From an uncultured Muribaculaceae bacterium (GTDB lineage: Bacteria; Bacillota_I; Bacilli_A; RF39; UBA660): a stretch of 64,000 nucleotides of DNA. The number at the start of each line of letters is the position of its first letter. The stretch's first letter is position 1. Positions 266-15,850 of this stretch are shown in pieces. The DNA lies in the NCBI GenBank assembly GCA_964630365.1, contig CAZVUP010000005.1, forward strand, positions 1,877 to 65,876. The letters run 5' to 3'. The notes below the pieces were generated by a model that was not told the origin of the DNA, did not search any database, and saw nothing but the letters and a program-made list of their open reading frames with translations. Both the position numbers and the translations under genes were made by a program.

Positions 266-412
266 TTATCGATTATGATTGCAATTTCCATTATTATTTC
301 CAAATCCCCAGAATAGGAAGAAGATAATAATTATTATTATAAAGATTGCCCACCAACTTCCAAAACCATCATTGTTTTGATTTTGATAGACTGGATAACC
401 ATATGTATACAT
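266..412 (-). CDS. Small (48 aa) membrane protein, unknown function
   Basis: Hand-translated: MYTYGYPVYQNQNNDGFGSWWAIFIIIIIIFFLFWGFGNNNGNCNHNR. GGAGA RBS lies 6 nt upstream of the ATG at 412. The stop overlaps hairpin AAAGGCA/TGCCTTT (251-267), which is followed by a T-run on the minus strand. Confidence 0.5.
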   Translation of the reverse strand: MYTYGYPVYQNQNNDGFGSWWAIFIIIIIIFFLFWGFGNNNGNCNHNR

Positions 413-471
413 AAACATTCTCCTTTCTATATATTATATTAAGAATGTCTATGATTGCTAATAATTGTTAC

Positions 472-2217
472 CTATTCTACTGTTACACTTTTAGCTAAGT
501 TTTTTGGTTTATCGATATCACAGCCACGTTTATAGGCTACATAGTAAGCTATCATTTGAAGAGCTGGTACAACTAATAGTGGTTGTAATTTTTTATGTAC
601 TTTAGGAATTATTATTTTATTAGGATAATTATTATTGAAAGTACCTACGTAGATTGGATTTGCCCCACGAGAGATAACTTCTTCTAAATTAGAAATAGTT
701 TTATCTTGAGTCTCTTCATCTGTAACTATAGCAAAAACTATCGTTCCATCCTGAACTAAAGAAATTGTTCCATGTTTTAATTCCCCTGCTTGATATGCAT
801 CACTATGAATATAGGAAATTTCTTTTAGTTTAAGGCTTCCTTCCATACTAATAGCATAATCTATTCTACGACCAATAAAGAAAACATCTTCATGTTTGTA
901 TATTTGATCAGCTATTTTTTTATAGAAGCCTGTTTTATCTAGTTGAACTTTCAATTGCTGAGGAATATTCTTTATATCTTTTAAGTATTGATCATCTTTA
1001 TTTATTTTATATGAAAGAAGGCTAAATACTAAAACTTGTAAAATATATGCTTTTGTTGTTGCTACTGCAACTTCTTTCCCAGCCTCTATCAAAACTTTAT
1101 ATGTGCACTCTCTAGCAATAGTTGAACCATCTGTATTAACGATTGCTAATGTATCAGCATTATTATCATTTGCTTTACGCATAGCTGCTATAGTATCTGC
1201 TGTTTCTCCAGATTGAGAAATTAGTATTACTAGCGTATTATCTTCATAAATTATATTACGATAACGATACTCTGAAGCGACATCTGCATCTACTTTTATA
1301 CCATCGTCTTCTAGTAAATATTTACCAACCATGCCTGCATAATAGGCTGATCCACAGCCGACTATGTGAATATGCCTATACTTTGAAAGATCTGGAAGTA
1401 GATCTAAATTATTAATATATTTATTGATTAAATTTTCCACAAGAATCGGTTCTTCCATTATTTCTTTCATCATATAATGTTCATAACCTCTAAGAGAAAT
1501 ATCTTCTGTTTTTAAATCACTAGTTTGAACTTCTCTTTTAATCTCTTTCCCATCTTTGATTATTTTATAACCTGAGTTATCAATTACTACAATTTCATTT
1601 TTTCCAAGCAGGCTATAATTTTTTGTATAATTTAGAATTGCTCCTATATCACTTGTTATAAAATATTCATCATTTCCAACACCTATTATTAATGGCGATT
1701 CACATCTAACGGCATATAGTTTATTATCATCGTCACATAGAATACCAAAGGCATAACTTCCTTGAAGTACTTTGATTGCCTTGTCTATAGCCTCAACCAT
1801 ATCACCATGATAATATTTATCAATAACTGCTGCAGCAACTTCTGTATCTGTAGAACTTGCAAATGTTACTCCTTCTTTTATTAATTCATTTCTTAGGATA
1901 GCAGCATTTTCTATGATTCCATTATGAACTAATGTTATCTTACCAACTTTATGGGGATGAGCATTTGTTTCATTTGGTTCACCATGTGTTGCCCATCTTG
2001 TATGTGCAATACCAACATTACACTCAATTAAATTTTCTTTGTTAATTTTTTCTTCAAGATTAGCAATTTTTCCTACACTTTTAATTATTTGAAGGTTTTC
2101 ATTATTTTTTAATGCCATTCCAGCAGAATCATATCCACGATATTCTAAATTTTTCAATCCATTTAATAATATTTCTTGAGGCTGCTTTTTTCCTAAATAT
2201 CCGATTATTCCGCACAT
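472..2217 (-). CDS. glmS: Glutamine--fructose-6-phosphate aminotransferase (isomerizing)
   Basis: N-terminal MCGIIGY (Ntn amidotransferase Cys2), two SIS domains, C-terminal ...AKSVTVE; 581 aa, a typical GlmS length. Confidence 0.95.
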   Translation of the reverse strand: MCGIIGYLGKKQPQEILLNGLKNLEYRGYDSAGMALKNNENLQIIKSVGKIANLEEKINKENLIECNVGIAHTRWATHGEPNETNAHPHKVGKITLVHNGIIENAAILRNELIKEGVTFASSTDTEVAAAVIDKYYHGDMVEAIDKAIKVLQGSYAFGILCDDDNKLYAVRCESPLIIGVGNDEYFITSDIGAILNYTKNYSLLGKNEIVVIDNSGYKIIKDGKEIKREVQTSDLKTEDISLRGYEHYMMKEIMEEPILVENLINKYINNLDLLPDLSKYRHIHIVGCGSAYYAGMVGKYLLEDDGIKVDADVASEYRYRNIIYEDNTLVILISQSGETADTIAAMRKANDNNADTLAIVNTDGSTIARECTYKVLIEAGKEVAVATTKAYILQVLVFSLLSYKINKDDQYLKDIKNIPQQLKVQLDKTGFYKKIADQIYKHEDVFFIGRRIDYAISMEGSLKLKEISYIHSDAYQAGELKHGTISLVQDGTIVFAIVTDEETQDKTISNLEEVISRGANPIYVGTFNNNYPNKIIIPKVHKKLQPLLVVPALQMIAYYVAYKRGCDIDKPKNLAKSVTVE

Positions 2218-2243
2218 TTTTATTTCTCCTTTATATACTATTT

Positions 2244-3497
2244 CTAACGAGTTATTTCATCTTTCTTAAAATAGAAGTTCTTTTTTGGACTTTTATTTTT
2301 TTTCATTTCAATTAATCTATCTTCTTGGATAGAATCATTGTAAATATTTGTATATGTATATTTTATATTTTGTTTTTCAGTTAGGATTTGTTTTTCTTCA
2401 TCTGTTAATGTATTCTGAACCTCTTTTTCCTGATATTCATTTATATTTTCTGTACTATTTTTATAAACAAGGTAGCCATCTTTTGCCTGATAATGCAAAT
2501 AAAAATCAATGTCCGTTTTTAAATATACATTGTATACAGAGTTTTCACCTATCTCCACTTTACATGTTGCATCAGCAATTGAACCAAAATTCTCATTCTT
2601 CTTTAAGTCCATATTTGCAAGTTTTATTAATTTAATACAAGTGGCTTTATTCTCACTATTCTCACTCCAAAACTTTGAATGCTGACTTCTGCTTACTCTG
2701 ATATTGAATAAAACAATTAATAAAAATATCAAAAACGCTAGGTATATTATTAAAGCAGCGACAAAATTAACTCCACCCTTTTTAGCACAAATATTAATTA
2801 TTTTAAAACGATCAGTATCATCTGCTTTATTTTTTATATGTTTTACTCTTTTTCTAGCAATAAAAATATAATATTTATTAAAGAAAATTCCCCAAAATAG
2901 CATTGATATAAATGCATATATCACAGTTATTATTAGTGATTTAAAGCAAACTATAATTAAGCCTGTTAAAAACAAACCAAAAGCACCTGTAAAATATATT
3001 TTCCTATAGAGAAGATAAATCCAACTAAATATGAATGCATAAATATTAAATGGTGTCTTTTTAACTATTTTATAATCTTCTCCAATATAAGCTTCTAAAA
3101 TATCTTCATCTTCATAATAAAATTCTTTTTCTTTTGATGATATTTTTTCTTTTTTTGGTTTTTCCTTTTTTTTCTCTTTTTTTTCTTTTTTTGCAATTTC
3201 ATCTTCATCAACAATATCAATTATATCATCATTTGTTTTTATTAATTCATCTAAATCAACATCTGTTTCAATCACTTCATCTTCGTCATCAGCTACATCT
3301 TGAAAATTATCTTCTTCTTTTTCATCTTCATCATCTAATAATATATCATCAATAGTTTTTAAGTCTTTTTCATTTTTTGAGCTTACAGTTTCCCAACTGC
3401 TATCATCTAAATCTGTATCTGGTTCATTGAAAAAACCACATACTGTACAGAATGTTTCATTTTGTTTTAATTTTTTTCCACATTTTTGGCAACGCAT
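2244..3497 (-). CDS. Zinc-ribbon membrane protein with acidic/lysine-rich linker, unknown function
   Basis: N-terminal CxxC...CxxC (MRCQKCGKK...FCTVCGFF), a long D/E- and K-rich low-complexity segment, about 4 predicted TM helices, and a C-terminal soluble domain. Confidence 0.6.
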   Translation of the reverse strand: MRCQKCGKKLKQNETFCTVCGFFNEPDTDLDDSSWETVSSKNEKDLKTIDDILLDDEDEKEEDNFQDVADDEDEVIETDVDLDELIKTNDDIIDIVDEDEIAKKEKKEKKKEKPKKEKISSKEKEFYYEDEDILEAYIGEDYKIVKKTPFNIYAFIFSWIYLLYRKIYFTGAFGLFLTGLIIVCFKSLIITVIYAFISMLFWGIFFNKYYIFIARKRVKHIKNKADDTDRFKIINICAKKGGVNFVAALIIYLAFLIFLLIVLFNIRVSRSQHSKFWSENSENKATCIKLIKLANMDLKKNENFGSIADATCKVEIGENSVYNVYLKTDIDFYLHYQAKDGYLVYKNSTENINEYQEKEVQNTLTDEEKQILTEKQNIKYTYTNIYNDSIQEDRLIEMKKNKSPKKNFYFKKDEITR

Positions 3498-3508
3498 TTT
3501 ATCACCCC

Positions 3509-4483
3509 TTATTCTTCACTTAAATGTTCATACTCTACAGGTTCTCCAACGCATTCTTTTATTTGATCATTAAACATTTTATCAAACTGAGGCATAGATT
3601 TAGTAATAACATCTTGATAAATGTTTTTACTAGTTACTATTGCCTGTCTTATATCCATAATATTTACTTCTTTTCTATTATCAAATAAGGCATTTGAAAA
3701 TGCTTGTTGTATTATTGTAAGGGATACATCTGGGTATCGAGAACCAATTTCATAAATTCTTTTGTACTCACTAGTTATGTCAGTTATAAATTCCATAATT
3801 CGTCTTTTTATGAAAGATGTATATAACATTTTAGCACCTGTTCTATATTCTATTTTAGGGAGTGTTCCTAATAGTATTTCAATATTTTCTTCTCTAGTTG
3901 GCTCGAATATTTCAACTTTTTGAAATCTACGAACAAATGCTTTGTCTCTAAGTATATAACGTTCATATTCTTCAGTGGTTGTTGCTCCGATTACTTTTAT
4001 ATCACCTCTGTCTAAAGCTGGTTTAAACATATTAGCAAAGTCAAGAGCTTCTCCCTTGGTTCCCATTAAAGTATGAATTTCATCTATAAATAAAATAAGC
4101 TTAGATTTATCTTTTAATTCATCAATTAATGTTTGGACTTTTGATTCGCCAGTTATTGGATCTGTACCTAGAAGTGCCGCTGTATTTAATTTTATAACTT
4201 GATAATCTTTTAAAATATCAGGTACTAGTCCCTTTTGAATACGATAAGCTAATCCTTCTACAGTCGCGGTTTTACCAACACCAGGTTTTCCTATTAAAAC
4301 TGCAGATTTATCTGGTGTTAAAAGAATTAGTATTAATTCTTTTATTTGCTTATCTCTTCCTATGGCTGGATTAGTTATATATTCGTTTTTTTGAAAATTT
4401 TCCCCATAGTTTTTAAGCATACTAATTCTTTTAGATTTTATATCAAAATTATTATTTACTTTATTATTAAATTCCTCATTCAT
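3509..4483 (-). CDS. AAA+ ATPase homologous to ClpA/ClpB/ClpC nucleotide-binding domain 1 only
   Basis: GRDKQIKELI..., Walker A LIGKPGVGKTATVEGLAYRI, Walker B LILFIDEIHTL, and GATTTEEYERYILRDKAFVRRFQKVEI are collinear with ClpB NBD1. The ORF ends after NBD1 (324 aa), with no NBD2 or N-domain. Confidence 0.8.
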   Translation of the reverse strand: MNEEFNNKVNNNFDIKSKRISMLKNYGENFQKNEYITNPAIGRDKQIKELILILLTPDKSAVLIGKPGVGKTATVEGLAYRIQKGLVPDILKDYQVIKLNTAALLGTDPITGESKVQTLIDELKDKSKLILFIDEIHTLMGTKGEALDFANMFKPALDRGDIKVIGATTTEEYERYILRDKAFVRRFQKVEIFEPTREENIEILLGTLPKIEYRTGAKMLYTSFIKRRIMEFITDITSEYKRIYEIGSRYPDVSLTIIQQAFSNALFDNRKEVNIMDIRQAIVTSKNIYQDVITKSMPQFDKMFNDQIKECVGEPVEYEHLSEE

Positions 4484-4619
4484 TTTATCACGTCCTAATC
4501 TATCAATAATTATACCATATTTTTTTATTTACTCATACTATATTTGGTATATTCACTTGACTATCTGTATAGAAAAAACTCTTTTAAATATTATTTTATA
4601 ATTCTAGTATATTTTTTTA

Positions 4620-5480
4620 TTACATTGGATTAACATGGATTACAGTTAAGTATATTTCTTCTATTTCTTTTTCTATTTCCCGCTCTAATTTATTTGCTAT
4701 TTCGTGGGAAGCAAAAGTAGTTAAATTACCATCAACAAATATTGTGAAAGATATTTGATATTTGTAACCTACTGGTGTGGCATTAAAATGATTAACTTTT
4801 TTAATTTCTTTATGTTTTTCGATTAACTTATAAACTTTATTTTTTGTTTTCTCATCCATACATTTGTCCATTAAAACATCATAGCTTTCGATAAAAATTT
4901 TAATAGCAGCATAAGCTATCCAAATAGAAATTATGATTCCAACTATAATATCAATTATATAATATCCATATAATCCAAGTATAGCAGACACTAGTGTAAG
5001 TGAAGTTAATAAACAATCATTTCTGTGATCCTTACTATTTGCTAGTAATAGAATACTATTATTATTCTTAGCTAACTTTGATGTATATAAATATAAAGAT
5101 AATTTAGTTATTATTGTAATTAATGAGACTACTACTAAATAAATGGAAAAGTTTATTTTATCATGATGAATATATGTTAAAATGCTGTTTTTTATAACAC
5201 TATAAGCTGTGAAAAGCATTACTATACTTATTAATAATGAATATATATATTCTGCTTTGCCATGGCCTAAATTGTGATCATCATCCGCTTCTTTAGAACT
5301 AATCTTATTGCCAATCATGGTCATTAGTGATGATAAGACATCTCCAAAGCTATTAAAAGCATCAGCAAGCATAGCTTGACTATTACTAATAATCGCAATT
5401 ATTCCTTTTATGACTAATAAAAACAAATTAAATATTATTCCCAAAAGACTTGCTTTATTAGTTGCTTTATATCTATTCAT
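4620..5480 (-). CDS. Cation diffusion facilitator (CDF) family metal efflux transporter
   Basis: Motifs SQAMLADAFNSFGDV and DDDHNLGHGKAEY, six TM helices, and a C-terminal cytoplasmic domain; typical CDF layout. Confidence 0.85.
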   Translation of the reverse strand: MNRYKATNKASLLGIIFNLFLLVIKGIIAIISNSQAMLADAFNSFGDVLSSLMTMIGNKISSKEADDDHNLGHGKAEYIYSLLISIVMLFTAYSVIKNSILTYIHHDKINFSIYLVVVSLITIITKLSLYLYTSKLAKNNNSILLLANSKDHRNDCLLTSLTLVSAILGLYGYYIIDIIVGIIISIWIAYAAIKIFIESYDVLMDKCMDEKTKNKVYKLIEKHKEIKKVNHFNATPVGYKYQISFTIFVDGNLTTFASHEIANKLEREIEKEIEEIYLTVIHVNPM

Positions 5481-5489
5481 AATCCACCT

Positions 5490-6608
5490 CTATAGTTTAT
5501 CAACTTTATCAATAAAAGAATTTAAGGCATGATACCAATCATATATTTTTTGCTTTTTTGTTGAATACGCTGCTATTTCTTCAAAAGTAGCATCATTTTT
5601 ATTTTCTTTATACCTCTTAATACATCTTTGATAGCAAGTATTAATACAGGTCCTGATAATTATAATATCTCCTTTTAATAATTTAGTATTTTTCATATTA
5701 CGAAACTGAGCACTATCAATTATTAACATTTTATTCTTATCTTTATAATAATTTATTATTTCCTCATATAACTCATCAAAGTTGTAACAGATATTAGGTA
5801 ATTCATGGTGTTTTTTTATTAAATAGTCATATAATTCTTGATTATTTTTATCTTTTTCCATATTTCCGAAAACTTGATCTGTATCAATTACTATACAATC
5901 TGGATTATCTTTATATTTTTGAGCTAATGTGGATTTACCACTACCACTTTCACCTGTTATATTTAAAACATTATCATCACTTAAATGTTTAATATAAGGA
6001 TCTTTATCAATGTCTTCTGTAATATATAATTCTTCTTTACGAAAATATTCCTTTAGAAAGTTTTCTTTAGTTAAACGATATTTTATTCCTTCTACTTCAT
6101 TTTCAATAAATGTATATTTCAATTTTTTTGTACCTAGTTTTTTAAAACCTAGTTTTTCTATTAGTTGCCAGCTTGGTTTATTATCTTTAGCAATTGCTGT
6201 TTCAATATATTTTATTTTTACTTCAGTAAACATATACTTTAATATTTCTAGAGCTGCTTCGTAGCAATATCCTTTTCTTTGAAAGTTTGGACTAATAAAC
6301 CAACCAATATCTCTAATTGCTAAATCATTACTTTCATCGTTTTCTTGGATACTAATTTGACCTATAACTTCATGCGTATTTTTTAATTCAATTGTCCATC
6401 TAAAAACATCTTGGTTAGTTGCTTCTTCAAGCTTTCTATATTGCCATTTTTTCTCATCTTCCCAAGAAAAGTTTATTTTTGTAGTTAAATAGTATTTATT
6501 AACTTCACTAAGACATAGTATTTTCCAGAGTGGTTTTAAATCTTTTTCTTCGGTTTTATGTAAAATTAATCTCTTTGTTTCTAGTGTTTTACTACCTAAA
6601 AAATTCAT
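5490..6608 (-). CDS. Fusion protein: RimJ/RimL-like GNAT acetyltransferase (N-terminal) plus P-loop kinase-like domain (C-terminal)
   Basis: N-terminus LETKRLILHKTEEKDL...RKGYCYEAA...LGF is GNAT-like. The C-terminal half has Walker A ITGESGSGKSTLAQKY followed by IVIDTD, resembling small NMP/zeta-type kinases. Confidence 0.6.
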   Translation of the reverse strand: MNFLGSKTLETKRLILHKTEEKDLKPLWKILCLSEVNKYYLTTKINFSWEDEKKWQYRKLEEATNQDVFRWTIELKNTHEVIGQISIQENDESNDLAIRDIGWFISPNFQRKGYCYEAALEILKYMFTEVKIKYIETAIAKDNKPSWQLIEKLGFKKLGTKKLKYTFIENEVEGIKYRLTKENFLKEYFRKEELYITEDIDKDPYIKHLSDDNVLNITGESGSGKSTLAQKYKDNPDCIVIDTDQVFGNMEKDKNNQELYDYLIKKHHELPNICYNFDELYEEIINYYKDKNKMLIIDSAQFRNMKNTKLLKGDIIIIRTCINTCYQRCIKRYKENKNDATFEEIAAYSTKKQKIYDWYHALNSFIDKVDKL

Positions 6609-7444
6609 TTTTTTGCAACTCCTCTATTATAAATAAAATATCTCTCTATCATTTGCCTGTTGACAGCAAATTTTTGTAATCTGTCTGTAACAATTTCTTC
6701 TGGTATTTCTACACCTTCTGCTTTTAGCTCGGCAAAAATTTGTTTGAGACTTTTTTCACTTATTACTGGTAACATTTCTATTAAACGTTCTGTATATATT
6801 GTGTCACTTAATTTTAAAAATTTATAAACTAAATTTTCTTGTGGATCTAAATTATAACCAAATGAGTCGCCTTTTTCTATACCCAAACAGTATTCCCCAT
6901 CAGTTATTGCTTCATAATCTAACATGCTCTCATTATCGAATAACGGGGCAAATCTTACTCCTTTATCATCAACAATTATTCCTATATTTTCATTATGACG
7001 ATCAATATTTCCAATTATAATATCGAATAGAAAGATATTTACTAATTCATCCATTAATTTTGCTGTTGTATCCTCATCAAACATCATGTCAAAGGCATAC
7101 CAAATATCTTCTAAATTGTTTTCATTATCATAGCTTTTAGAAGAGTCACTATAATATTTTCCTAATATATCAATCATTGGTATATAGTGTTTAGTATCAA
7201 ATTTTTTAGTAACAACGCCATGTGTTTTTTTATAATTTGCAGGATAATATTTGCAACAAGATACTCCTAATCTCTCAGCAATTTTTTGAGCAATTAATTC
7301 ATTATAAGCGTATTCAAAACCTTTATCAGCTTTATAATAGTAGCTATTTCCTTGATAAGTAAAAGATAAAGCTGACAATCTGTGTTCCTTTATATTAGTA
7401 ATTTCATTTTTCATTTCATTTAAATTAAAATACACTTTATGCAC
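6605..7444 (-). CDS. HipA_C / PI3-4-kinase-like protein kinase paralog 1
   Basis: Catalytic-loop-like FLFDIIIGNIDRHNENIGIIV followed by FAPLFDNE (Mg-binding Asp position in HipA). About 270 aa, so no HipA N-terminal domains. 4-nt overlap with the downstream GNAT fusion. Confidence 0.6.
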   Translation of the reverse strand: MHKVYFNLNEMKNEITNIKEHRLSALSFTYQGNSYYYKADKGFEYAYNELIAQKIAERLGVSCCKYYPANYKKTHGVVTKKFDTKHYIPMIDILGKYYSDSSKSYDNENNLEDIWYAFDMMFDEDTTAKLMDELVNIFLFDIIIGNIDRHNENIGIIVDDKGVRFAPLFDNESMLDYEAITDGEYCLGIEKGDSFGYNLDPQENLVYKFLKLSDTIYTERLIEMLPVISEKSLKQIFAELKAEGVEIPEEIVTDRLQKFAVNRQMIERYFIYNRGVAKK

Positions 7445-8230
7445 CTACTTACTATGATTAATTATTTTTTCAGGCATACTCATGGCAATCATTTCTCTGT
7501 TATATGAAAACTTATCTAAAATAGTATTTTTTATGTTTTCTGGAATTACTACTCCCTCTGTTTCCAATTCATAAAAAATATCTTCTAATGATTGTACATT
7601 TATTATAGGTAACATTGCTTGAAGACGTGCTGTATACGAAGAATCACTTTCATTCAAAAATTTATAAACTGTATTTTCTTTATCTTCTTTACTTACGCTT
7701 AAATGATAAGTTCCTTCATAAATTGATTCATTATGGAGCATACCATCATGATCAAATAGAGGTGCAAATTTCACTTTGCCATTTGATACAATTAATCCAT
7801 AGTTTTCATTATGGCGGTCCCCATTGCCAATTAAAATATCAAAAAGAAATATATTTACTAACTCATCCATTAGTTTTTTAGTAGTTTTTTCATCAAATGT
7901 TTTAGAAAAAGCATACCAGATATCTTCTAAATTATTTAGTTTATTATTATCAGTTCTATAAACTGAATACAAAATGTCTGAAATTGTAATGTAGTTTGTC
8001 ACATCAATAGCCTCTGAAGAAATTCCAATGGAACCATTATTTGTAGTCAAATAGCAATTTGCAGATGGCAATCCTAATTTTTCGGCAATTTTATGGGCAA
8101 TTAACTCATAATATGTTCTTAATTCATCTAATTGTTTATAATAGTATTCTTTCCCATCATATTCAAATACTTTTTTATTTAGACTGTTTACTTTATAATT
8201 AACTTTCATTTTATTTAAATCAAAAACCAT
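7445..8230 (-). CDS. HipA_C / PI3-4-kinase-like protein kinase paralog 2
   Basis: NNLEDIWYAF...LMDELVNIFLFDILIGNGDRHNENYGLIV...FAPLFDHD. This block is nearly identical to paralog 1, and the gene abuts paralog 1 with no gap. Confidence 0.6.
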   Translation of the reverse strand: MVFDLNKMKVNYKVNSLNKKVFEYDGKEYYYKQLDELRTYYELIAHKIAEKLGLPSANCYLTTNNGSIGISSEAIDVTNYITISDILYSVYRTDNNKLNNLEDIWYAFSKTFDEKTTKKLMDELVNIFLFDILIGNGDRHNENYGLIVSNGKVKFAPLFDHDGMLHNESIYEGTYHLSVSKEDKENTVYKFLNESDSSYTARLQAMLPIINVQSLEDIFYELETEGVVIPENIKNTILDKFSYNREMIAMSMPEKIINHSK

Positions 8231-8281
8231 AGTTACACCCTCTTTATTAGTATATCATAATTGTAAAATACAAAAACATAC

Positions 8282-9100
8282 CTATTTCGCTTTTTGGTAT
8301 GTTTTTGGTTTTTCTGTAAAATAATTTTCAATCATTTCTCTGTTAATAGCAAATTTTTTTAAAAGTTTTAATCTTATATCGATTGGAATTGTTATTCCTT
8401 CTCTTTCTAATTCAAAAAAGATTTTTTGAAGATTTTTTTTAGAGATTAATGGTAATAATTTTAATAGTCTTTCATGATAAGTTTTATCTGAAATATCTAA
8501 AAAATAGTATAACATATTTTGTCTTTCACTAATTTTATCAAATCTTAAATCATAGTAACCATCTTTAATTGTTTTATCATAAGTCATAAATTCATTATCA
8601 ATTAAAGGGGCAAATTGAGTACTATCTTCTTCTATTATTAAACCATAATTTTCTAAGTTTCGGTCTGGATTACCAATTATTGCATCAAAGAGAAAAATAT
8701 CAACTAATTTATCCATTAATCTGGCTGTTGTGGCCTCATCAAATTCACTATCTAATGCTTCCCAAATATTTTCAAATGTATTACGAATTTTTCTATGCCT
8801 AGTACGATGATTATCTAAAAAAGCTTGCATACTTTGATAATGCTCTAATTGAATTTCTTCTGATATTATACCATCTCGACCAGCAAAGCAACCTAAGTAA
8901 TAATGAGCACATGGTATTCCGGCTTGTTTAGCTATTTTTTCTGCTATAACCTCATTGTAATAGTATTCATATGTAATCATTTCTTTATAGTAGTATTTTT
9001 GACCATTGTAGGTAAATACTAATTGTCTTCTATAATATTCTTTTTTACTTTTTATTATTTCAATTGGTAGTTCATCAAGATTAAAATACATGTTGATCAC
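8282..9100 (-). CDS. HipA_C / PI3-4-kinase-like protein kinase paralog 3
   Basis: FLFDAIIGNPDRNLENYGLII...FAPLIDNE. The His of the DRH motif is replaced (DRN), so it may be a catalytically altered paralog. Confidence 0.55.
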   Translation of the reverse strand: MINMYFNLDELPIEIIKSKKEYYRRQLVFTYNGQKYYYKEMITYEYYYNEVIAEKIAKQAGIPCAHYYLGCFAGRDGIISEEIQLEHYQSMQAFLDNHRTRHRKIRNTFENIWEALDSEFDEATTARLMDKLVDIFLFDAIIGNPDRNLENYGLIIEEDSTQFAPLIDNEFMTYDKTIKDGYYDLRFDKISERQNMLYYFLDISDKTYHERLLKLLPLISKKNLQKIFFELEREGITIPIDIRLKLLKKFAINREMIENYFTEKPKTYQKAK

Positions 9101-9938
9101 CTGATATCTTTAATTTTGTTTTAGGTTTTTTATTATTTAGAAATTCTTTTATTAAATTATAGTTCATTTCAAATTTTAGTATCAACTCTAATTTTATTTG
9201 AAAGGGTATTTCTACTCCTTCTTGATTTAAAATTTTAAATATTCTTTTCAAATTTTCTGGCCTTATAACTTCAAGCATAGTCTGGAACTTCTCCCAATAC
9301 TCTATTGGTAAGGCATTAATAAATTTATGAAAAATATTTTCTTCTGAAGTATCTTCTCGTGTTGCTAAAAGTGCGTATTGTCCAAAAAAAACACTTTCTT
9401 CTGTTAATAATTTTTCATTATCAAATAATGGTGTAAATTTCACTTCATTATCTGTAATTATTAAGCCATAATTACCTGGATGACGGTCATTATTTCCAAT
9501 TATTACATCAAAGAAAAATATTTCTATTAAATCTTCTATTAATTTAGCAGCTATTTCTTGTGAGAAAAGGGATTTAAAAGCAAAACTAATATCTTCAAAA
9601 TTATTTAAATCATAAAGAATAGAAGCACTTTTTTCTACTCTTTTACTACGAATATAAAAATTTTCTAATAGCGTCTCCATGGTAATACAATTGCTGGTAT
9701 CAAAATATTCAGATACTACTCCACAAGCATTATCATGTTCACCTAACATATAATGCGCACATGGTATTCCTAAATCTTTGGCTATCATTTCAGCAATTAA
9801 TTCATTATACAATTCTTTTTCTTTACTAACTTTTTTATAGAAATATTTTTTTCCATTATATATAAATGTAAATTTAGTGGAAAACAATTCATCTATATCT
9901 ATAATTTTTATGTTCAATTTATCAAGATTAAAATACAT
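9081..9938 (-). CDS. HipA_C / PI3-4-kinase-like protein kinase paralog 4
   Basis: FFFDVIIGNNDRHPGNYGLII...FTPLFDNE. Overlaps paralog 3 by 20 nt and lies 19 nt downstream of the polyprenyl synthase gene. Confidence 0.6.
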   Translation of the reverse strand: MYFNLDKLNIKIIDIDELFSTKFTFIYNGKKYFYKKVSKEKELYNELIAEMIAKDLGIPCAHYMLGEHDNACGVVSEYFDTSNCITMETLLENFYIRSKRVEKSASILYDLNNFEDISFAFKSLFSQEIAAKLIEDLIEIFFFDVIIGNNDRHPGNYGLIITDNEVKFTPLFDNEKLLTEESVFFGQYALLATREDTSEENIFHKFINALPIEYWEKFQTMLEVIRPENLKRIFKILNQEGVEIPFQIKLELILKFEMNYNLIKEFLNNKKPKTKLKISGDQHVF

Positions 9939-9957: not shown

Positions 9958-11028
9958 TTATTTTTTTCTTTCCCTTAAATATTCAATAAATCCTACAAGT
10001 ATTTCTTTTTTATCATTATCTATCCACTTAATATTATTAAGTACGTCTAAACCATCATCATATAATTCGTTCATCAATTTAAGTGATTTATCTAAAGCTT
10101 TACTTTTTATAAAAATATTCTTAACTTTATTAATGTTTTCAGTAGTTAATTCTTCTTGTCCATAATACTTTTCTAATTCTTCTATATATTTAGTATTTTT
10201 CGCATAAGAATATAATATTGTCTGCTTATATTCTTTGATATCAGAAGCTACTACTTTTCCCATTTCATCAGAAAATATTCCTAGGATATCATCTTGAATT
10301 TGAAATGCTATTCCAACTTTCTCGCCAAACTTCTCAATATCTTCTATTTTTTTAGTATCAGCTCCAGCAAGTAGTAGCCCAATTGTTAATGGACCTATTA
10401 TTGTATAATATGCTGTCTTTAACCTATAGATATTCATAATATTTTTTTCAAGATCGCGTTTTTTTATTATAGCGTTTCTACTTTCAAATGGCAAGATAAC
10501 GTCTAATAATTCACCTTTAATTGTTTTTAAGACTGTATCATTAAATGAATTAAAGACAATAGCGAGATTTTCATCATCTTTATAGTTATCAATTATTATT
10601 TTATTGGCAGAATATAGGCCATAGTCTCCTACACAAAGAGCTATGGAATTACTTAAATGCTCTACTTCTTTTGAATTATACTTTTGATATTTTTTATAAT
10701 TAGCATAATGAACTGTATCTTTACCACGACGTTTATTATCTTTATCAATAATGTCATCATGTACTAAAATAGCAGTTTGGAATACTTCATACGCTAAAGC
10801 TAATGGATAGGAATAGTTTTTATTATTTCTTAGAAGGCTATAGCCTAGATTGACAAGTGTTCCTCTAACCATTTTCCCAGATGAGTTTAAATTTTTGAAA
10901 TGCTCTAAATTTTCTCTTATTAATTGATTTTCATCTTCTGAAAAATTAGAATTATATTTATTTAATAATTTTTCCATCTCTTCTTTTTCTGATGAATAAT
11001 ATTTTTTAAAACAAGTAATATTTTCCAT
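9958..11028 (-). CDS. Polyprenyl diphosphate synthase (trans-isoprenyl diphosphate synthase family)
   Basis: First Asp-rich motif LVHDDIIDKDNKRRG and second motif FQIQDDILG. Chain-length specificity cannot be read from the sequence. Confidence 0.85.
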   Translation of the reverse strand: MENITCFKKYYSSEKEEMEKLLNKYNSNFSEDENQLIRENLEHFKNLNSSGKMVRGTLVNLGYSLLRNNKNYSYPLALAYEVFQTAILVHDDIIDKDNKRRGKDTVHYANYKKYQKYNSKEVEHLSNSIALCVGDYGLYSANKIIIDNYKDDENLAIVFNSFNDTVLKTIKGELLDVILPFESRNAIIKKRDLEKNIMNIYRLKTAYYTIIGPLTIGLLLAGADTKKIEDIEKFGEKVGIAFQIQDDILGIFSDEMGKVVASDIKEYKQTILYSYAKNTKYIEELEKYYGQEELTTENINKVKNIFIKSKALDKSLKLMNELYDDGLDVLNNIKWIDNDKKEILVGFIEYLRERKK

Positions 11029-12110
11029 TATTTATTATGACCTCCCTCAATAATACTCTCTGCTGTAGCATTTAAAATTTGATTTTCTATTTTTTCTTTT
11101 ACTGGTAATAATCTAATAGTTAGATACTCATCTATTTCGTAGGGAAATGTATCAATTACTATACTTTTATCATGATGGGCAATTCTTCTGAATGTTCTTA
11201 TTAATTTATCGGTTGCATTTTTTTGGATAAAATCATTTTTTTCTAATAATTCTGCTTCATTATTATGTCCTCTAGCAAATATCATTCTTGAAGAATATCT
11301 AAGAGGTAAGTATGTAACAATCTTTATTTTTTCAATTTTCTCTTTTTTTAATAAGGATAGAAAAATATTAAGTGCAAAAACAAATGATGGTGTAACATCA
11401 GTTATATTTTCTTCTTCTGATAATGGTTTTTCTTTTGGAGGAACGCCAGCATTTAATTTAAATAATAAGCGTTTCATCTTTTTTATATATTTTTCTTCAA
11501 CTAGTGATTTTTCATTTGATTTTTCTTTGGGGTTCATAACACTATATATATAACAGGTACCATCGCTTATTCCATAATAAATAGATGGCAGTTTATAGCT
11601 AAGATACTCACCATTTTCTTCGCTATTTAAGCTTAGTTCAATTATATTAGGTGTTTCCATTGCGACTGGGGCATTACTCTTTTTTATATGTAAACAACTA
11701 TTGTTTAGTACTTCATTTACTTCTATTTCTATACCATCAGAGAGATAGTCGAACGTTTTGTCTTGCAAATAAGCTATTCGTCTTCTAATTAATCTTTCTG
11801 GATTTAGAAAATCTTCTGTAGTAGCATTTATAAACAAATAAGACATTATCCATTTGATAGGACTTTTTTTCTTATCTAAAAAGTTAGGAATCTTTCTGTT
11901 TTTTTCTAGTTCTAATTTTATATATTCTTCTAGTAGTGAAAAAAATGTTTTTTCATCTTTTATAACTAATTCGGCAAGATTTTGTTCATTATAATAATGT
12001 ATGTTTTTTTCAAGGATTCTTGTGTTAAAGGCTATTTCAAATTTGTCATTATCTATTGTGACATTTCCTTCTTTAGCTTCCTTAATTAATTCATAAAATA
12101 TTTCTTTCAT
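11028..12110 (-). CDS. Hypothetical protein (360 aa), no recognised domain
   Basis: Long ORF translationally coupled (overlapping stops/starts) to lspA upstream and the polyprenyl synthase downstream. No motif recognised. Confidence 0.5.
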   Translation of the reverse strand: MKEIFYELIKEAKEGNVTIDNDKFEIAFNTRILEKNIHYYNEQNLAELVIKDEKTFFSLLEEYIKLELEKNRKIPNFLDKKKSPIKWIMSYLFINATTEDFLNPERLIRRRIAYLQDKTFDYLSDGIEIEVNEVLNNSCLHIKKSNAPVAMETPNIIELSLNSEENGEYLSYKLPSIYYGISDGTCYIYSVMNPKEKSNEKSLVEEKYIKKMKRLLFKLNAGVPPKEKPLSEEENITDVTPSFVFALNIFLSLLKKEKIEKIKIVTYLPLRYSSRMIFARGHNNEAELLEKNDFIQKNATDKLIRTFRRIAHHDKSIVIDTFPYEIDEYLTIRLLPVKEKIENQILNATAESIIEGGHNK

Positions 12111-12583
12111 TTTTTTTCCTCCTGCTTAGCAAAGAACATTATTATGATAAGACCTAAAGTTCCTAATGTTATAGCAATATCAGCTAAATTAAATATTGGA
12201 AACTGATACTTAAAAATAGTAAATGATAAGTAGTCAATAACTCCTTTATGAATTATCCTATCAATTAAATTTCCATATATTCCACCACTTATAATAGCAA
12301 GTAAAATTATACTTTTTTTATTGATAGTTTTATCATTATTAATATAATGATTGATAAATACTAGAACAATAACACTTAAAATTATTAATAATAAAGTATT
12401 GTTTTCTAAAATTGAAAAAGCTGCTCCTGTATTTTTGACATAATAAATGCTGAAGAACTTAGGAATAACTTTTATAGTACTATATAATTCCATATTTTTA
12501 ATAATAACAATCTTTATTATTTGATCTAATAAGAAGGTTATTGTTGTAAATATATGAACTTGCTTATTCTTCATAGTTATCAC
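12107..12583 (-). CDS. lspA: Lipoprotein signal peptidase (signal peptidase II)
   Basis: Four TM helices with NTGAAFS and FNLADIAI motifs containing the catalytic Asp residues; 158 aa. Confidence 0.85.
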   Translation of the reverse strand: MITMKNKQVHIFTTITFLLDQIIKIVIIKNMELYSTIKVIPKFFSIYYVKNTGAAFSILENNTLLLIILSVIVLVFINHYINNDKTINKKSIILLAIISGGIYGNLIDRIIHKGVIDYLSFTIFKYQFPIFNLADIAITLGTLGLIIIMFFAKQEEKK

Positions 12584-15518
12584 CTTTTAATATTTTTATT
12601 TTCTCAACAATTATTTGATATTCATCCAATCGTTTTTCAATATTACCCCTAATCTTAATAAGATTTCCTCGAGATAAGGTAGGATACTCTGAATATACTT
12701 TTGGAAAAATAATAAATTCTTTGGTAGATGTTTCGTCACTTCCAGTTAGAAAAGACATTTTTTCACCATTCTTAGTATTAATTGTTTTAATTTTTTCAAC
12801 AAGAACAAGGACATCTACCCGCTTATTAAAATTATTTTCTATTTCATTTAGTGATATACAGTATGGGTTATCTTTACGATATAGTGCTGTTGGATGGGAA
12901 GTTAAGTAAAAACCAAATACTTCTTTTTCTTTTTCTAACAAATAAGAATTTGGATATTCTTCCTGTAATTCAATAACTGGCTTCATAACGAGAGAAGGAT
13001 CAATATCTTTAGTAAGTTCTGCATAATTAAATAAACTATCTAAATTATAGATTAAAGTAGCTCTATTATAATTAAACTCTTTAAACAAATCTGCAAATAT
13101 CAATATTTCAAATGTTTTTTTACCAATACCGGCAATATACAATCTACTAAAAGCATCATAAATATTAGTGAATTTTCCTTCTTCTTTAGCCTTAGCTATT
13201 TGTTCTGATACAACTACACCAATTCCTTTAATATTTGATATTGGATAAATAATTTTATTATCTTTTACAAGGTACTTACTTTCACTATTATTTATCGTTG
13301 GCTTTTCGACATCAATATTATTTTTTTTAGCTTCCATAATATATTCATGAGTTTTGGTCTCGCTACCTATTACATTCGATAGTAAATTAGCAAAAAATAT
13401 AGTTTGATAATGACACTTTAAATAAGCCATTTTGAAGGCAATTATTGAATAAACAACAGAGTGTGATTTATTAAATCCATAACCTGCAAAATTCAAAATT
13501 AAATCAAAAAGCTTTTTAGCTTCTTCTTTTGGATGATTATGTTCAACACTTTTACTAATAAATTTATCTTCTTCTTGTTTTAATAATTCAAGCTTCTTTT
13601 TACTCATGGCTCTTCTTAGAATATCTGCTTCACCTAATGTATATCCAGCATAAAGATTAGCCACTTGCATAATTTGTTCTTGATATATTAAAAGACCATA
13701 TGTCGATTTAGTAATTTCTTCTAGAGACTTATCGAAATATGTTACTTTTTCCTCTTTATTTTTTCTTCTAATATATGTATCAATATTGATGGCTGCTCCT
13801 GGTCTAAATAAAGCGATAGCAGCTATTATATCTTCAAAAGATTTTACTTTTAATTTTTTTAAAAAGCTACGCATTCCTGAAGATTCAAATTGGAAAACAC
13901 CACTGGTATTTGCCTCTTCAAATAGTTTTAGTGTTTCTTTATCATCTAATGGGATATCATTATAATTAATTTTATTCGTTGTTAATGTGTTTATGTCATT
14001 TATGATATTATCTAATATTGATAAGTTTTTAAGGCCTAAAAAATCCATTTTTAAAAGACCAAGTTCTTCAAGATATTCCATTGAATAACCAGTTAAATAT
14101 AAATTATCTGATTTCATTAAAGGTATTACTTCATCTAGATCAACTTGACTCATTACAATACCTGCTGCATGTTGTGAAGTGTGTCTTGGAAATCCTTCTA
14201 ACTTAATAGCTATTTGTAACATTTCAGATAATAGTGTATCACTATCTATTCTGACCTTGAATGTTTGATTGTTCTTATAAATGTCTTCTAACTTTTCTTT
14301 AGACAAATTAGGGATTAATTTGCATAAAGAATCTACTTTGTAAGTTGGTACATTTAAAACACGTGACACATCTCTAATGACTTGTTTGGCTGCTAGAGTA
14401 CCAAAAGTTACTATTCCGCTTACGCGTTTTTCCCCATATTTTTCTTTGACGTAACTAATTACTTCTTCTCTTTTATCATCAGGAAAATCAGTATCAATAT
14501 CGGGCATTGTTTTTCTTTCGGGATTTAAAAATCTTTCAAATAGTAAGCCATATTCTAGAGGATCAATATCAGTTATGCCTAAGGAATAAGCAACTAATGA
14601 TCCGGCAGCACTTCCTCTTCCCGGTCCTACTAGTATATTATTTTTTTTAGCATATTTTATAAAATCATAAACAACTAAAAAATAATTAGAAAAGCCCATA
14701 TTATCGATGACTTGTAATTCATGAGTTAATCTTTTTTTATAGTCATCAGAAACATTACCTGATAAGCGTTTTTTTAATCCTAAGCGGCATAAATCAAACA
14801 AATACTTTTTAGGATCTTCACAATCATAAATTGGTAAAAGAAGTTTTGCCTCAGGAAAAACCAGATTACACTCATTAGCAATAATTTCTGTGTTATTCAA
14901 TCCTTCTAAAGTACTGAAATCTTCTAAATTACTTATTTCTAGATTATGATTGTTGACATCATAGGAAATGTCATCACTAATTGTTTTTCCATCTCTTATT
15001 CGATATAGGTATGGTAATATTTTTGAATCATTTTCTTTTAAATATAAGTTTTCTTGAAAGAATACCACTTTATCGGTGATAATTCGTGAATTTTTTTCTT
15101 CTTTTTTGTTTGTAAAACCTAAATATATATCAACATATAACTCTTTTAATTCTTCATAAACATTTTGATATAAAGCTGGGATTATTGCAATAACATTTTT
15201 TCTATATTTTTTTAAATCCGAAATATCAATTCGTCTTTCACTTTGTATTGTTGATAATTTGATTAAACATTTATAGCCTATGTAGTCTTTTGCTAATAAA
15301 ACGAATTTATAATTATCTAAAATTAATTCTAAGCCAATGATTGGTTTAATATTTTTAGTTTGGCATTTCTTAATAAATTCCATTGTTCCAAACATATTTG
15401 TATCTACTAAGGAAATAGCTGGTAATTTATTTTTTTCTGCATAATAAATAATCTCATCTATTTTTAGTAGACTAGATAATAATGTATAATTACTTTTATT
15501 AAACAATGGAATATACAT
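12564..15518 (-). CDS. dnaE: DNA polymerase III alpha subunit (DnaE type)
   Basis: N-terminal PHP domain, GPGRGSAAGSLVAYSLGITDIDP, PDIDTDF catalytic aspartates, HhH, and C-terminal OB fold; 984 aa. Confidence 0.95.
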   Translation of the reverse strand: MYIPLFNKSNYTLLSSLLKIDEIIYYAEKNKLPAISLVDTNMFGTMEFIKKCQTKNIKPIIGLELILDNYKFVLLAKDYIGYKCLIKLSTIQSERRIDISDLKKYRKNVIAIIPALYQNVYEELKELYVDIYLGFTNKKEEKNSRIITDKVVFFQENLYLKENDSKILPYLYRIRDGKTISDDISYDVNNHNLEISNLEDFSTLEGLNNTEIIANECNLVFPEAKLLLPIYDCEDPKKYLFDLCRLGLKKRLSGNVSDDYKKRLTHELQVIDNMGFSNYFLVVYDFIKYAKKNNILVGPGRGSAAGSLVAYSLGITDIDPLEYGLLFERFLNPERKTMPDIDTDFPDDKREEVISYVKEKYGEKRVSGIVTFGTLAAKQVIRDVSRVLNVPTYKVDSLCKLIPNLSKEKLEDIYKNNQTFKVRIDSDTLLSEMLQIAIKLEGFPRHTSQHAAGIVMSQVDLDEVIPLMKSDNLYLTGYSMEYLEELGLLKMDFLGLKNLSILDNIINDINTLTTNKINYNDIPLDDKETLKLFEEANTSGVFQFESSGMRSFLKKLKVKSFEDIIAAIALFRPGAAINIDTYIRRKNKEEKVTYFDKSLEEITKSTYGLLIYQEQIMQVANLYAGYTLGEADILRRAMSKKKLELLKQEEDKFISKSVEHNHPKEEAKKLFDLILNFAGYGFNKSHSVVYSIIAFKMAYLKCHYQTIFFANLLSNVIGSETKTHEYIMEAKKNNIDVEKPTINNSESKYLVKDNKIIYPISNIKGIGVVVSEQIAKAKEEGKFTNIYDAFSRLYIAGIGKKTFEILIFADLFKEFNYNRATLIYNLDSLFNYAELTKDIDPSLVMKPVIELQEEYPNSYLLEKEKEVFGFYLTSHPTALYRKDNPYCISLNEIENNFNKRVDVLVLVEKIKTINTKNGEKMSFLTGSDETSTKEFIIFPKVYSEYPTLSRGNLIKIRGNIEKRLDEYQIIVEKIKILKGDNYEE

Positions 15519-15654: not shown

Positions 15655-15834
15655 ATGGCAGTTAATGTAAGTAAAAGAAAAGGTAATGTTAAAAACAATA
15701 GATCACATGCTCTAAATGCTACTAAGGAAAGACAAAATTTAAATCTACAAGTTTATAGATGCGAAGACGGTACTAAAGTTAGACTTTCTACAAAGGAAAT
15801 GAGAACTTTAAAGAAAAATGAAAAAGCTGCATAA
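15655..15834 (+). CDS. rpmB: 50S ribosomal protein L28
   Basis: Hand-translated 59-aa ORF below the track cutoff: MAVNVSKRKGNVKNNRSHALNATKERQNLNLQVYRCEDGTKVRLSTKEMRTLKKNEKAA. The NNRSHA.NA.K....NLQ core is the L28 signature. AAAGGAGGG RBS lies 6 nt upstream. Confidence 0.85.
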   Translation: MAVNVSKRKGNVKNNRSHALNATKERQNLNLQVYRCEDGTKVRLSTKEMRTLKKNEKAA

Positions 15835-15850
15835 TGCAGCTTTTATTTTT
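15822..15850 (+). terminator. Rho-independent terminator of rpmB (stem overlaps the stop codon); possibly bidirectional
   Basis: AAAAGCTGCA-TAA-TGCAGCTTTT hairpin followed by ATTTTT. The A-run on the left side could also serve the convergent gene 15851..16546. Confidence 0.7.

Follow-up and report, generated by a model that had tools for sequence, protein, structure and literature searches.

A kinase of the HipA superfamily is nearly always taken for a toxin, and a locus such as the one described here would be flagged in the same way by automated annotation and by the finders of toxin-antitoxin (TA) and defence systems. The Hip families, among them HipA, HipT and the short HipG, HipM, HipI and HipJ kinases (279-321 amino acids, without N-subdomain-1), were defined jointly with a neighbouring antitoxin (HipB, HipS, HipR, HipN or HipP), and the Hip Tree kept only kinases adjoining a putative antitoxin, so that an antitoxin-less branch was left out of this reference phylogeny by design (PMC8262856). 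HipH (YjjJ) of Escherichia coli is a monocistronic HipA homolog with no adjacent antitoxin (PMC8262856). CtkA of Helicobacter pylori is carried on the tfs3 integrative and conjugative element (ICE), varies between strains, depends on a type IV secretion system (T4SS) and bears a charged, disordered C-terminal secretion tail (PMC5536186). The stretch analysed here (the window) comprises 64,000 nucleotides (nt) of contig CAZVUP010000005.1 from the gut-derived assembly GCA_964630365.1, and its minus strand carries a tandem array of four kinase genes of this superfamily, K1 to K4, followed by a gene for a fusion of a GNAT acetyltransferase and a P-loop domain. Across a clade of uncultured low-GC gut Bacilli the kinase gene is chromosomal, passed on vertically and as a rule present in one copy. 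We favour, with moderate confidence, the reading that K1-K4 belong to a core, antitoxin-less, CtkA-like family of cytoplasmic kinases, which was expanded fourfold in one lineage with subfunctionalisation and likely phosphorylates Ser/Thr residues of proteins. The fold and chemistry are already known, and neither a new mechanism nor a new kind of system is involved; the antitoxin-less vertical family and the four-gene array are undescribed in the literature searched.

The kinase family and its catalytic residues

Five successive minus-strand open reading frames (ORFs), four kinases and the fusion, had been listed in an earlier note on this DNA and were confirmed at the same coordinates. The ORFs, their alignment and their profile matches bear out that the four kinases, 261-285 amino acids long, share one architecture: K1 (9081..9938, 285 amino acids) is the first gene of the array and is followed by K2 (8282..9091, 269 amino acids), K3 (7445..8230, 261 amino acids) and K4 (6605..7435, 276 amino acids), the best conserved copy. 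Against the Pfam HipA_C model (PF07804; gathering score 30.5 bits) K1, K3 and K4 score 43.2, 47.1 and 61.4 bits, above the cut-off, and K2 falls just under it at 28.2 bits; K2 reaches 341 bits against the family's own hidden Markov model and is 39-46% identical to the other paralogs, pairwise identity among all four being 39-50%. Matches to HipA_2 (29.7 bits for K3) and PI3_PI4_kinase are weaker than those to HipA_C. NCBIfam yielded nothing above noise save faint matches to YjjJ, a 443-residue protein with an N-terminal helix-turn-helix (HTH) that K1-K4 lack, at 13.7-18.4 bits vs a cut-off of 401 bits. The profile searches, which the note had proposed as a check, confirmed a kinase family and placed the ORFs in no non-kinase one.

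The motif hhFDhhIGNxDR[H/N]xxNxG, followed by (A/T)PL(F/I)D, is common to the four kinases in the alignment, much as reported earlier. K1 and K3 have DRH, and in K3 the residue pair after the Mg-binding Asp is DH, not DN; K2, the paralog for which the note had recorded DRN, has Asn in place of His150 (K4 numbering, here and below) and PLID as its variant of the Mg motif. Only four columns, K38, D148, N153 and D170, are invariant in 44 diverse members, and they are invariant in the four paralogs too. Among 184 family members at E <= 1e-30, D148 is retained in 183, N153 and D170 in 182 each, K38 in 175 and E49 in 173. Because the catalytic residues are kept, and because the proteins are hydrophilic (and acidic) with no signal-like hydrophobic N-terminus on inspection, K1-K4 are very probably active, cytoplasmic phosphotransferases.

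The DRN of K2 is a normal family variant, since it is kept (as is PLID) in the K2 ortholog of the sister organism, at the locus L002, occurs in the single-copy orthologs of L001 and P0015, and mostly comes with an intact catalytic set: Asn occupies the position of His150 in 31 of the 184 members (17%), and 42 of the 49 members without His keep the other four catalytic residues. On the K2 ortholog, the single-copy orthologs and the 17% share, DRN was rejected as the mark of a pseudokinase or decoy, and the decoy paralog that the note had entertained is not supported.

The best PDB sequence match is H. pylori CtkA (E 1.8e-8 for a single sequence and 4.8e-15 for the family profile, over residues 20-229). 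An AlphaFold2 (AF2) model of K4, predicted with 17 homologs as input (pLDDT 88.4, pTM 0.89), likewise retrieved CtkA first in Foldseek, over the whole length, with template modelling (TM) scores of 0.66-0.68 and E about 4e-11; further matches, all at probability 1.00, were HipA and HipT (TM about 0.55-0.63) and phosphoinositide 3-kinase (PI3K; 0.4-0.5). Pfam, AF2 and Foldseek together uphold the earlier description of HipA_C/PI3-4-kinase-fold ORFs without the HipA N-terminal subdomain. CtkA (JHP940; PDB 3AKJ, 3AKK and 3AKL) is of like size class (about 260-325 amino acids), is equally a stand-alone core without that subdomain, and shares with the paralogs the FDRHxxNxG catalytic loop and the APxFD Mg motif; neither has the Gly-rich GAQxK loop by sequence. 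The HipA_C alignments of the paralogs begin at model position 32-37, leaving unmatched the first ~35 profile positions, which we take to include the Gly-rich loop. Ahead of the Lys the family consensus reads FxYxGKxYYYK, with no invariant Gly, and the CtkA equivalent is LFYNNELYMVK. By sequence alone, the Gly-rich loop, which with an adjacent autophosphorylated Ser/Thr is one of the four canonical motifs of Hip kinases, was not found in the paralogs.

Sequence, motifs and fold place K1-K4 inside the HipA_C/CtkA-like superfamily; they fall outside its named groups. With HipA, HipT and the short Hip kinases they share the HipA_C superfamily, the D-x-H-x-x-N loop and the Mg-binding Asp; since both the adjacent antitoxin and the Gly-rich loop are missing, they are judged not to be members of the Hip toxin families in the sense of Gerdes et al. 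2021, from which they differ also in being vertically inherited rather than patchy. Nor are they CtkA orthologs, because identity is only about 20%, the array has no T4SS or ICE genes near it, and the family alignments that were inspected show no KRRR tail of the CtkA type at the C-terminus. Unlike CtkA, the present family is chromosomal, syntenic and vertical and has C-terminal helical motifs of its own (EG..IP and KF..N). An exhaustive profile search returned 197 cluster representatives at E <= 1e-30, all full-length at 255-330 amino acids, and the family spans ~200 clusters at 50% identity.

Distribution, duplication history and the neighbouring fusion

In this slot, outside the sister organism, the array is represented by one gene. 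In at least 10 related metagenomic lineages a single kinase, with or without the fusion, fills the slot between DnaE-LspA-polyprenyl synthase and CDF-AAA-GlmS (L001, L011/L012, L013, L017 and L019-L024), and DnaE of L017 and L019-L024 is 71-78% identical to that of the window. Every one of these slots keeps the kinase, whereas the CDF gene, the fusion and even the polyprenyl synthase come and go: L001, L017 and L019-L022 lack the fusion, and in L013 and L023 the polyprenyl synthase is gone and the kinase remains. The kinase lies directly 3' of the polyprenyl synthase in about 9 lineages, and a single kinase without fusion and without small ORF is the commonest state. Members at greater distance (190-340 bits) also occur singly, in different chromosomal surroundings, on contigs of up to 778 kb, where they adjoin NTP-transferase/LigA, DUF4097-LiaF/LytTR, short-chain dehydrogenase (adh_short)/rhomboid or FtsW/LemA genes, or stand beside NusB/XseA and MutS, or beside ThiF. 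L001 comes from goat jejunum, and further loci come from human gut assemblies.

No HTH, HipS-like or other recurrent small partner was found in more than 15 homologous loci. In the window, no non-overlapping ORF of at least 25 amino acids occupies any gap of the array, and none of the neighbours tested has a Pfam match to HTH, HipS or HIRAN, so that the note was right to see no HipB- or HipS-like partner and something other than a canonical HipBA module; a canonical TA system was accordingly rejected for the window and its homologous loci. A tblastn search of 50,697 phage records gave no match, the same search for plasmid carriage gave only two motif-level Campylobacter plasmid matches, and the loci examined hold no mobile-element genes. 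GC content is ~26% throughout the window, with no compositional break at the kinase locus and with flanks alike, and a mobile-element or phage origin was ruled out on the phage, plasmid and GC results. With syntenic single copies, no recurrent partner, no phage match and only motif-level plasmid matches, the kinase gene shows the pattern of vertical inheritance and not that of a TA or defence module, and the suggestion of a multi-kinase toxin/immunity set is not supported, given a normally single-copy, syntenic, vertical gene in housekeeping operons.

The four-copy array was seen only in the window and in L002/L003, loci of the sister organism that carry the same four kinases and the fusion in the same place; there K4 is 84%, the fusion 83% and DnaE 88% identical between L002 and the window. 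Whether the cluster is a widespread housekeeping one, a question raised by the note, has a divided answer: the single gene is conserved in the clade, but the four-copy array was met with in one sub-lineage only. The synteny of array and fusion divides likewise, holding in L002/L003 and giving way elsewhere to a single kinase with a variable fusion.

A neighbour-joining tree built on 36 sequences unites the window's four paralogs with their four orthologs from L002 in a single clade (bootstrap 100), each window/L002 pair being 1:1 (bootstrap 100). The paralog topology, (K1,(K2,(K3,K4))), with K1 basal and K3 sister to K4, is that of the gene order. Because the paralog clade is monophyletic and its topology mirrors the gene order, the array appears to have been born by serial tandem duplication of a single resident gene, which would have stood between the polyprenyl synthase and the fusion and been duplicated in tandem three times. 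The tree would date these events after the split from the single-copy lineages and before that between the window and L002. Tandem pairs have arisen independently in no fewer than two further lineages (L034/L038 and K2M17_04350/04355), so that duplicating in tandem and then diverging deeply is a recurring habit of the kinase family.

All four kinase copies are held by purifying selection: the ratio of nonsynonymous to synonymous substitution rates (dN/dS) between window and L002 is 0.25 for K1 and K2, 0.28 for K3 and 0.10 for K4, and with values of 0.10-0.28 the four copies are selectively maintained. Among the neighbours dN/dS is 0.04-0.06 for DnaE, CDF, AAA and GlmS and 0.13-0.14 for polyprenyl synthase, LspA and the fusion. 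K4 is as constrained as its housekeeping neighbours and K1-K3 are more relaxed or adapting, the L002 ortholog of K1 being 67-68% and that of K3 61% identical. Old paralogs, monophyletic and each under purifying selection, make a diversified kinase array, one of the labels that the note had offered, a fair one.

The near-identical block that had been noticed between two paralogs, K4 and K3, was found as described (33/41 residues identical). It reflects protein-level conservation, since it equals the family consensus and carries no excess of synonymous identity, identical codons amounting to 61% within the block vs 55% outside. DNA repeats inside the array are just 60-76% identical and none is long. 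With neither a synonymous excess nor long DNA repeats, gene conversion was ruled out as the source of the block, and no recent conversion tracts were seen among the paralogs.

One of the tandem pairs of other lineages (L038 1953-5240; L034 121-1727), whose members are 43-46% identical to each other, lies directly 3' of a prolyl-tRNA synthetase gene. HipA and HipT target aminoacyl-tRNA synthetases; given these targets the adjacency, a single case, may be of interest.

The fusion (5490-6608, minus strand; 372 amino acids) is made up of a GNAT half (6027..6587) and a P-loop half (5493..5996). The description of a RimJ-like GNAT joined to a GESGSGKST P-loop and overlapping K4 by 4 nt is confirmed by the ATGA read from the DNA and by an Acetyltransf_3 match at E 6.7e-26, and the fusion is probably translationally coupled to K4. 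The GNAT half is RimJ/RimL/SpeG-like, having the same Acetyltransf_3 fold as RimJ, RimL, SpeG and PA3944: it matches PDB 3fbu at E 8.6e-11, and Foldseek on the AF2 model of the fusion (pLDDT 94.9) gave 3fbu, PA3944, RimJ and SpeG at TMt 0.75-0.86, although it is no RimJ equivalog, scoring 29.4 bits vs a cut-off of 190 against NF008072, the model for RimJ as ribosomal protein S5-alanine N-acetyltransferase. GNAT matches filled the Foldseek list, in which no solved structure shared the full GNAT and P-loop architecture, and the P-loop half was likened by weak sequence matches instead: to AAA_22, AAA_24, AAA_33 and CoaE in Pfam, and to the CthPnkp kinase domain (E 1e-3), Nrk1 and CoaE in the PDB, so that with its Walker A motif it appears nucleoside-, nucleotide- or polynucleotide-kinase-like.

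At least 320 homologs of the fusion exist, many of them full-length and 55-66% identical, and each half is also known from stand-alone homologs. The fusion is consistently 5' of the CDF-AAA-Zn-ribbon-GlmS genes, and in L014 and L015 its upstream gene is DUF402, with no adjacent kinase. Because the fusion stays with the CDF block even without a kinase, its adjacency to the kinases is conserved gene order. An obligate pairing of kinase and fusion was rejected on three counts: fusions without kinase (L014, L015), kinases without fusion (L001, L017, L019-L022) and the larger size of the fusion family. In the window the two are likely co-expressed. TacT, AtaT and ItaT toxins are small stand-alone GNATs that have an adjacent antitoxin and are patchily distributed; the GNAT here, unlike these, is half of a 372-residue protein with no antitoxin-like ORF adjoining, and it is not of TacT/AtaT type. 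The link to tRNA-acetylating GNAT toxins drawn in the note is thereby not supported, the GNAT being RimJ/RimL/SpeG-like and part of a fusion family that travels with CDF-AAA-GlmS.

Substrates of the kinases and rival explanations

K1-K4 would carry out ATP-dependent phosphotransfer as in CtkA and HipA, with Ser/Thr residues of cellular proteins as the most probable substrates. From alignment to HipA, CtkA and PI3K motifs, Lys38 and Glu49 would anchor ATP, Asp148 would act as the catalytic base, and Asn153 and Asp170 would bind Mg2+. The most likely reason for the retention of four copies would be the partition or extension of substrate specificity, by subfunctionalisation or neofunctionalisation. 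The fusion would be an independent conserved neighbour that is co-transcribed with the kinases and is not their obligate partner. The genomic context suggests that the family has a benign housekeeping role.

Several observations weigh against this reading. Among characterised proteins the family comes closest to CtkA, which is a secreted effector, and to toxins that arrest growth (HipA, HipT and HipH), no consistent functional partner was found among the neighbours of the family, and the named members are all entries of the type 'hypothetical protein [Bacilli bacterium]' from metagenome-assembled genomes. Syntenic single copies are 41-48% identical in lineages whose DnaE is about 71-78% identical to that of the window, which is fast for a core gene and would fit a conflict-related role as well, and the PADLOC PDC-M03A profiles match the paralogs at residues ~30-180 with E about 1e-17 to 1e-23. 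The 'core' status itself derives from contigs rather than complete genomes, and the deep nodes of the tree are weak.

Of the alternatives, the one that survives best, though it is unlikely, makes K1-K4 small-molecule or lipid kinases whose paralogs act on different prenols, envelope lipid or sugar precursors, xenobiotics or antibiotics, and which would make up, with the fusion, a cluster for substrate modification that resembles AAC(6')-APH(2'') in function. That enzyme does combine an acetyltransferase with a kinase-type domain, as the fusion does, but the C-terminal half of the fusion is a P-loop domain and not of the APH/ePK fold. GNAT-kinase fusions are typical of small-molecule modification, and kinases of nucleosides, dephospho-CoA and polynucleotides are what the P-loop half resembles; yet the fusion is absent in six of the loci listed above (L001, L017 and L019-L022). 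PI3K and phosphoinositide 4-kinase (PI4K) lipid kinases are among the Foldseek matches of the K4 model, whereas the closest relatives in sequence and structure, CtkA, HipA and HipT, are protein kinases. The position of the kinase after the polyprenyl synthase in about 9 lineages, with LspA and GlmS near, also speaks for envelope substrates and is offset by L013 and L023, which have lost the synthase and not the kinase. Some of the distant contexts (NTP-transferase with GT2, FtsW/LemA, rhomboid, LiaF/DUF4097) have an envelope flavour, but the neighbours of distant members are inconsistent and no biosynthetic or resistance genes lie nearby. Tandem diversification is common in detoxifying enzymes, which counts for this alternative.

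It is improbable that the locus is a cryptic toxin system, in which HipA-like toxins would have an unrecognised neutraliser (encoded elsewhere, or the fusion, or a paralog such as the DRN-bearing K2 acting as decoy or immunity protein) or in which an incomplete PDC-M03-type defence system would persist. PDC systems are candidate defence systems only. Of all profile-library matches, PDC-M03A fits the N-lobe and catalytic core of K1-K4 best (E 5e-21 for K1, down to 2e-23), and this speaks for such a system; the context here is housekeeping, however, and PADLOC found no PDC-M03 component in the fusion or in the 360-residue ORF located upstream, the other neighbours being housekeeping genes. The HipA-superfamily bacterial kinases characterised so far, CtkA excepted, are toxic when overexpressed, HipH/YjjJ included (PMC8262856), and the present family is fast-evolving and repeatedly tandem-duplicated. 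Set against these points are the syntenic, vertical position of the gene with no GC shift and no mobile-element genes found in any locus examined, the lack of phage matches and the restriction of plasmid matches to motif level. The ATGA coupling of K4 to the fusion would suit a fusion that neutralises the kinases, but the commonest state is a single kinase with neither fusion nor small ORF, and the GNAT is not of TacT/AtaT type. A decoy role for K2 is countered by the occurrence of DRN in single-copy orthologs and in 17% of all members, mostly alongside an otherwise intact catalytic set, and by purifying selection on all four copies, none of which looks like a degenerate decoy. The locus counsels caution in calling such a kinase a toxin on its fold alone.

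That the paralogs are several kinase variants exported onto host proteins, as CtkA is, is very improbable: no solved structure is closer than CtkA, a kinase with which a gut-associated bacterium acts on its host, the present organism is gut-derived, and diversified paralogs are typical of effector families, but the proteins are hydrophilic with no signal-like N-terminal segment and, in the alignments inspected, no KRRR tail, no T4SS or ICE is nearby, identity to CtkA is ~20%, and the gene is vertically inherited in a dnaE-glmS housekeeping operon.

A family with an intact catalytic set together with a four-paralog array could be used to study how kinase specificity diverges. A broader proposal, which we advance tentatively, is that uncultured, genome-reduced gut Bacilli possess an unrecognised class of housekeeping signalling kinases, either domesticated, non-toxic regulators of the HipA superfamily or envelope-precursor kinases; the array would in that case be a natural experiment in the diversification of substrate specificity, with two expression units under the control of the hairpin and promoter conserved between K2 and K3.

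Gene layout, the K2-K3 gap and further features of the run

The array stands within a run of minus-strand genes in the order DnaE, LspA, a 360-residue ORF without assignment, polyprenyl synthase, K1-K4, fusion, CDF, AAA, Zn-ribbon membrane protein and GlmS. The upstream genes (9958..15518) form one terminator-free run with the array, K1 starting 19 nt past the polyprenyl synthase stop, and the downstream co-directional genes, from the CDF cation-efflux gene through the AAA ATPase and the Zn-ribbon membrane protein to GlmS, extend over 472..5480; no terminator-like sites were found when the DnaE-GlmS run was scanned. The gene order on the DnaE side is kept in L001, L002, L011, L017 and L019-L024, and the downstream CDF-side block in all syntenic loci. 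PHROG matches are to families of unknown function, with modest E-values, and an Rfam scan of the window gave one tRNA and no rRNA.

The tight packing with overlaps or zero gaps that had been reported for the array holds for two of its junctions. The longest ORF of K2 is 8282-9100 (272 amino acids, from GTG 9100) and that of K4 is 6605-7444 (279 amino acids); the true starts are most likely ATG 9091 for K2 (MYFNLDEL) and GTG 7435 for K4 (MYFNLNEM), which has AGGTG just before it. With these starts K1 and K2 overlap by 11 nt and the fusion start overlaps the K4 stop, whereas K3 and K4 are separated by ~9 nt rather than zero and K2 and K3 by 51 nt, the sole real gap in the array. The overlap of the K1 stop with the K2 start (9081-9091, minus strand) reads ATGTATTTTAA. 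The C-terminus of K1, ...HVF*, is a product of this overlap and is kept in the L002 ortholog, which is consistent with dual-coding constraint and translational coupling.

The K2-K3 gap contains a putative regulatory element. An inverted repeat over the K2 stop codon (8271..8307, minus strand) forms a predicted hairpin with a 12-bp stem and a 13-nt loop, and past it follow a U-rich run, the extended -10-like motif TGATATACT (8249..8257, minus strand) and the K3 Shine-Dalgarno sequence. The 95-nt gap region folds at -16.5 kcal/mol (z -2.4). Between window and L002 the stem is invariant, with substitutions confined to the loop, and the motif, which was read from the sequence, is invariant too. 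The segment made up of the last ~50 nt of K2 and the gap (8246-8350, minus strand) is 90-93% identical to L002 in 60-nt windows, more than any other DNA of the K1-K3 part, whereas K2 and K3 coding DNA is only 70-75% identical. A generic promoter scan performs at chance level in this AT-rich DNA. We infer a candidate internal attenuator or terminator in the hairpin and a candidate internal promoter for K3-K4-fusion in TGATATACT, and the element probably splits the array into two expression units, K1-K2 and K3-K4-fusion.

The 360-residue ORF (11028-12110, minus strand) lies between lspA and the polyprenyl synthase gene. It has no Pfam, PADLOC or PHROG match and NCBIfam noise only (ArlH, E 0.089). 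It is absent from L002, the closest relative, and from L001 and L011; a homolog 48% identical (L023 2429-3583) takes the place of the polyprenyl synthase in L023. Small insertions specific to single lineages also occur in the conserved block: L002 has a gene for a uracil-DNA glycosylase (UDG)-like protein (12826-13467) between CDF and AAA, and in L024, with ORFs at 8149-8775 and 5634-6149, an ORF of like size (208 amino acids) occupies the CDF/AAA position and a DUF402 gene stands between kinase and fusion. The window has neither a UDG-like nor a DUF402 gene at those positions.

Directly 3' of glmS lies an ORF of 48-50 amino acids (window 266-418, minus strand; L002 17636-17782; L011 14913-15065; L013 13611-13757). 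It is 82-96% identical over four species, above many neighbouring proteins, and its N-terminus is rich in Tyr, Pro and Asn, its tail in Asn, with a single, very hydrophobic helix (WWAIFIIIIIIFFLFWGFG) besides; it gave no NCBIfam match and probably represents a genuine small membrane protein that has escaped annotation. At the other end of the run, a 59-residue plus-strand ORF in the region 15655-15844 matches ribosomal protein L28 weakly (23 bits, under the cut-off), and a bidirectional terminator-like hairpin 3' of it (15822-15844) forms the upstream boundary of the dnaE-glmS run.

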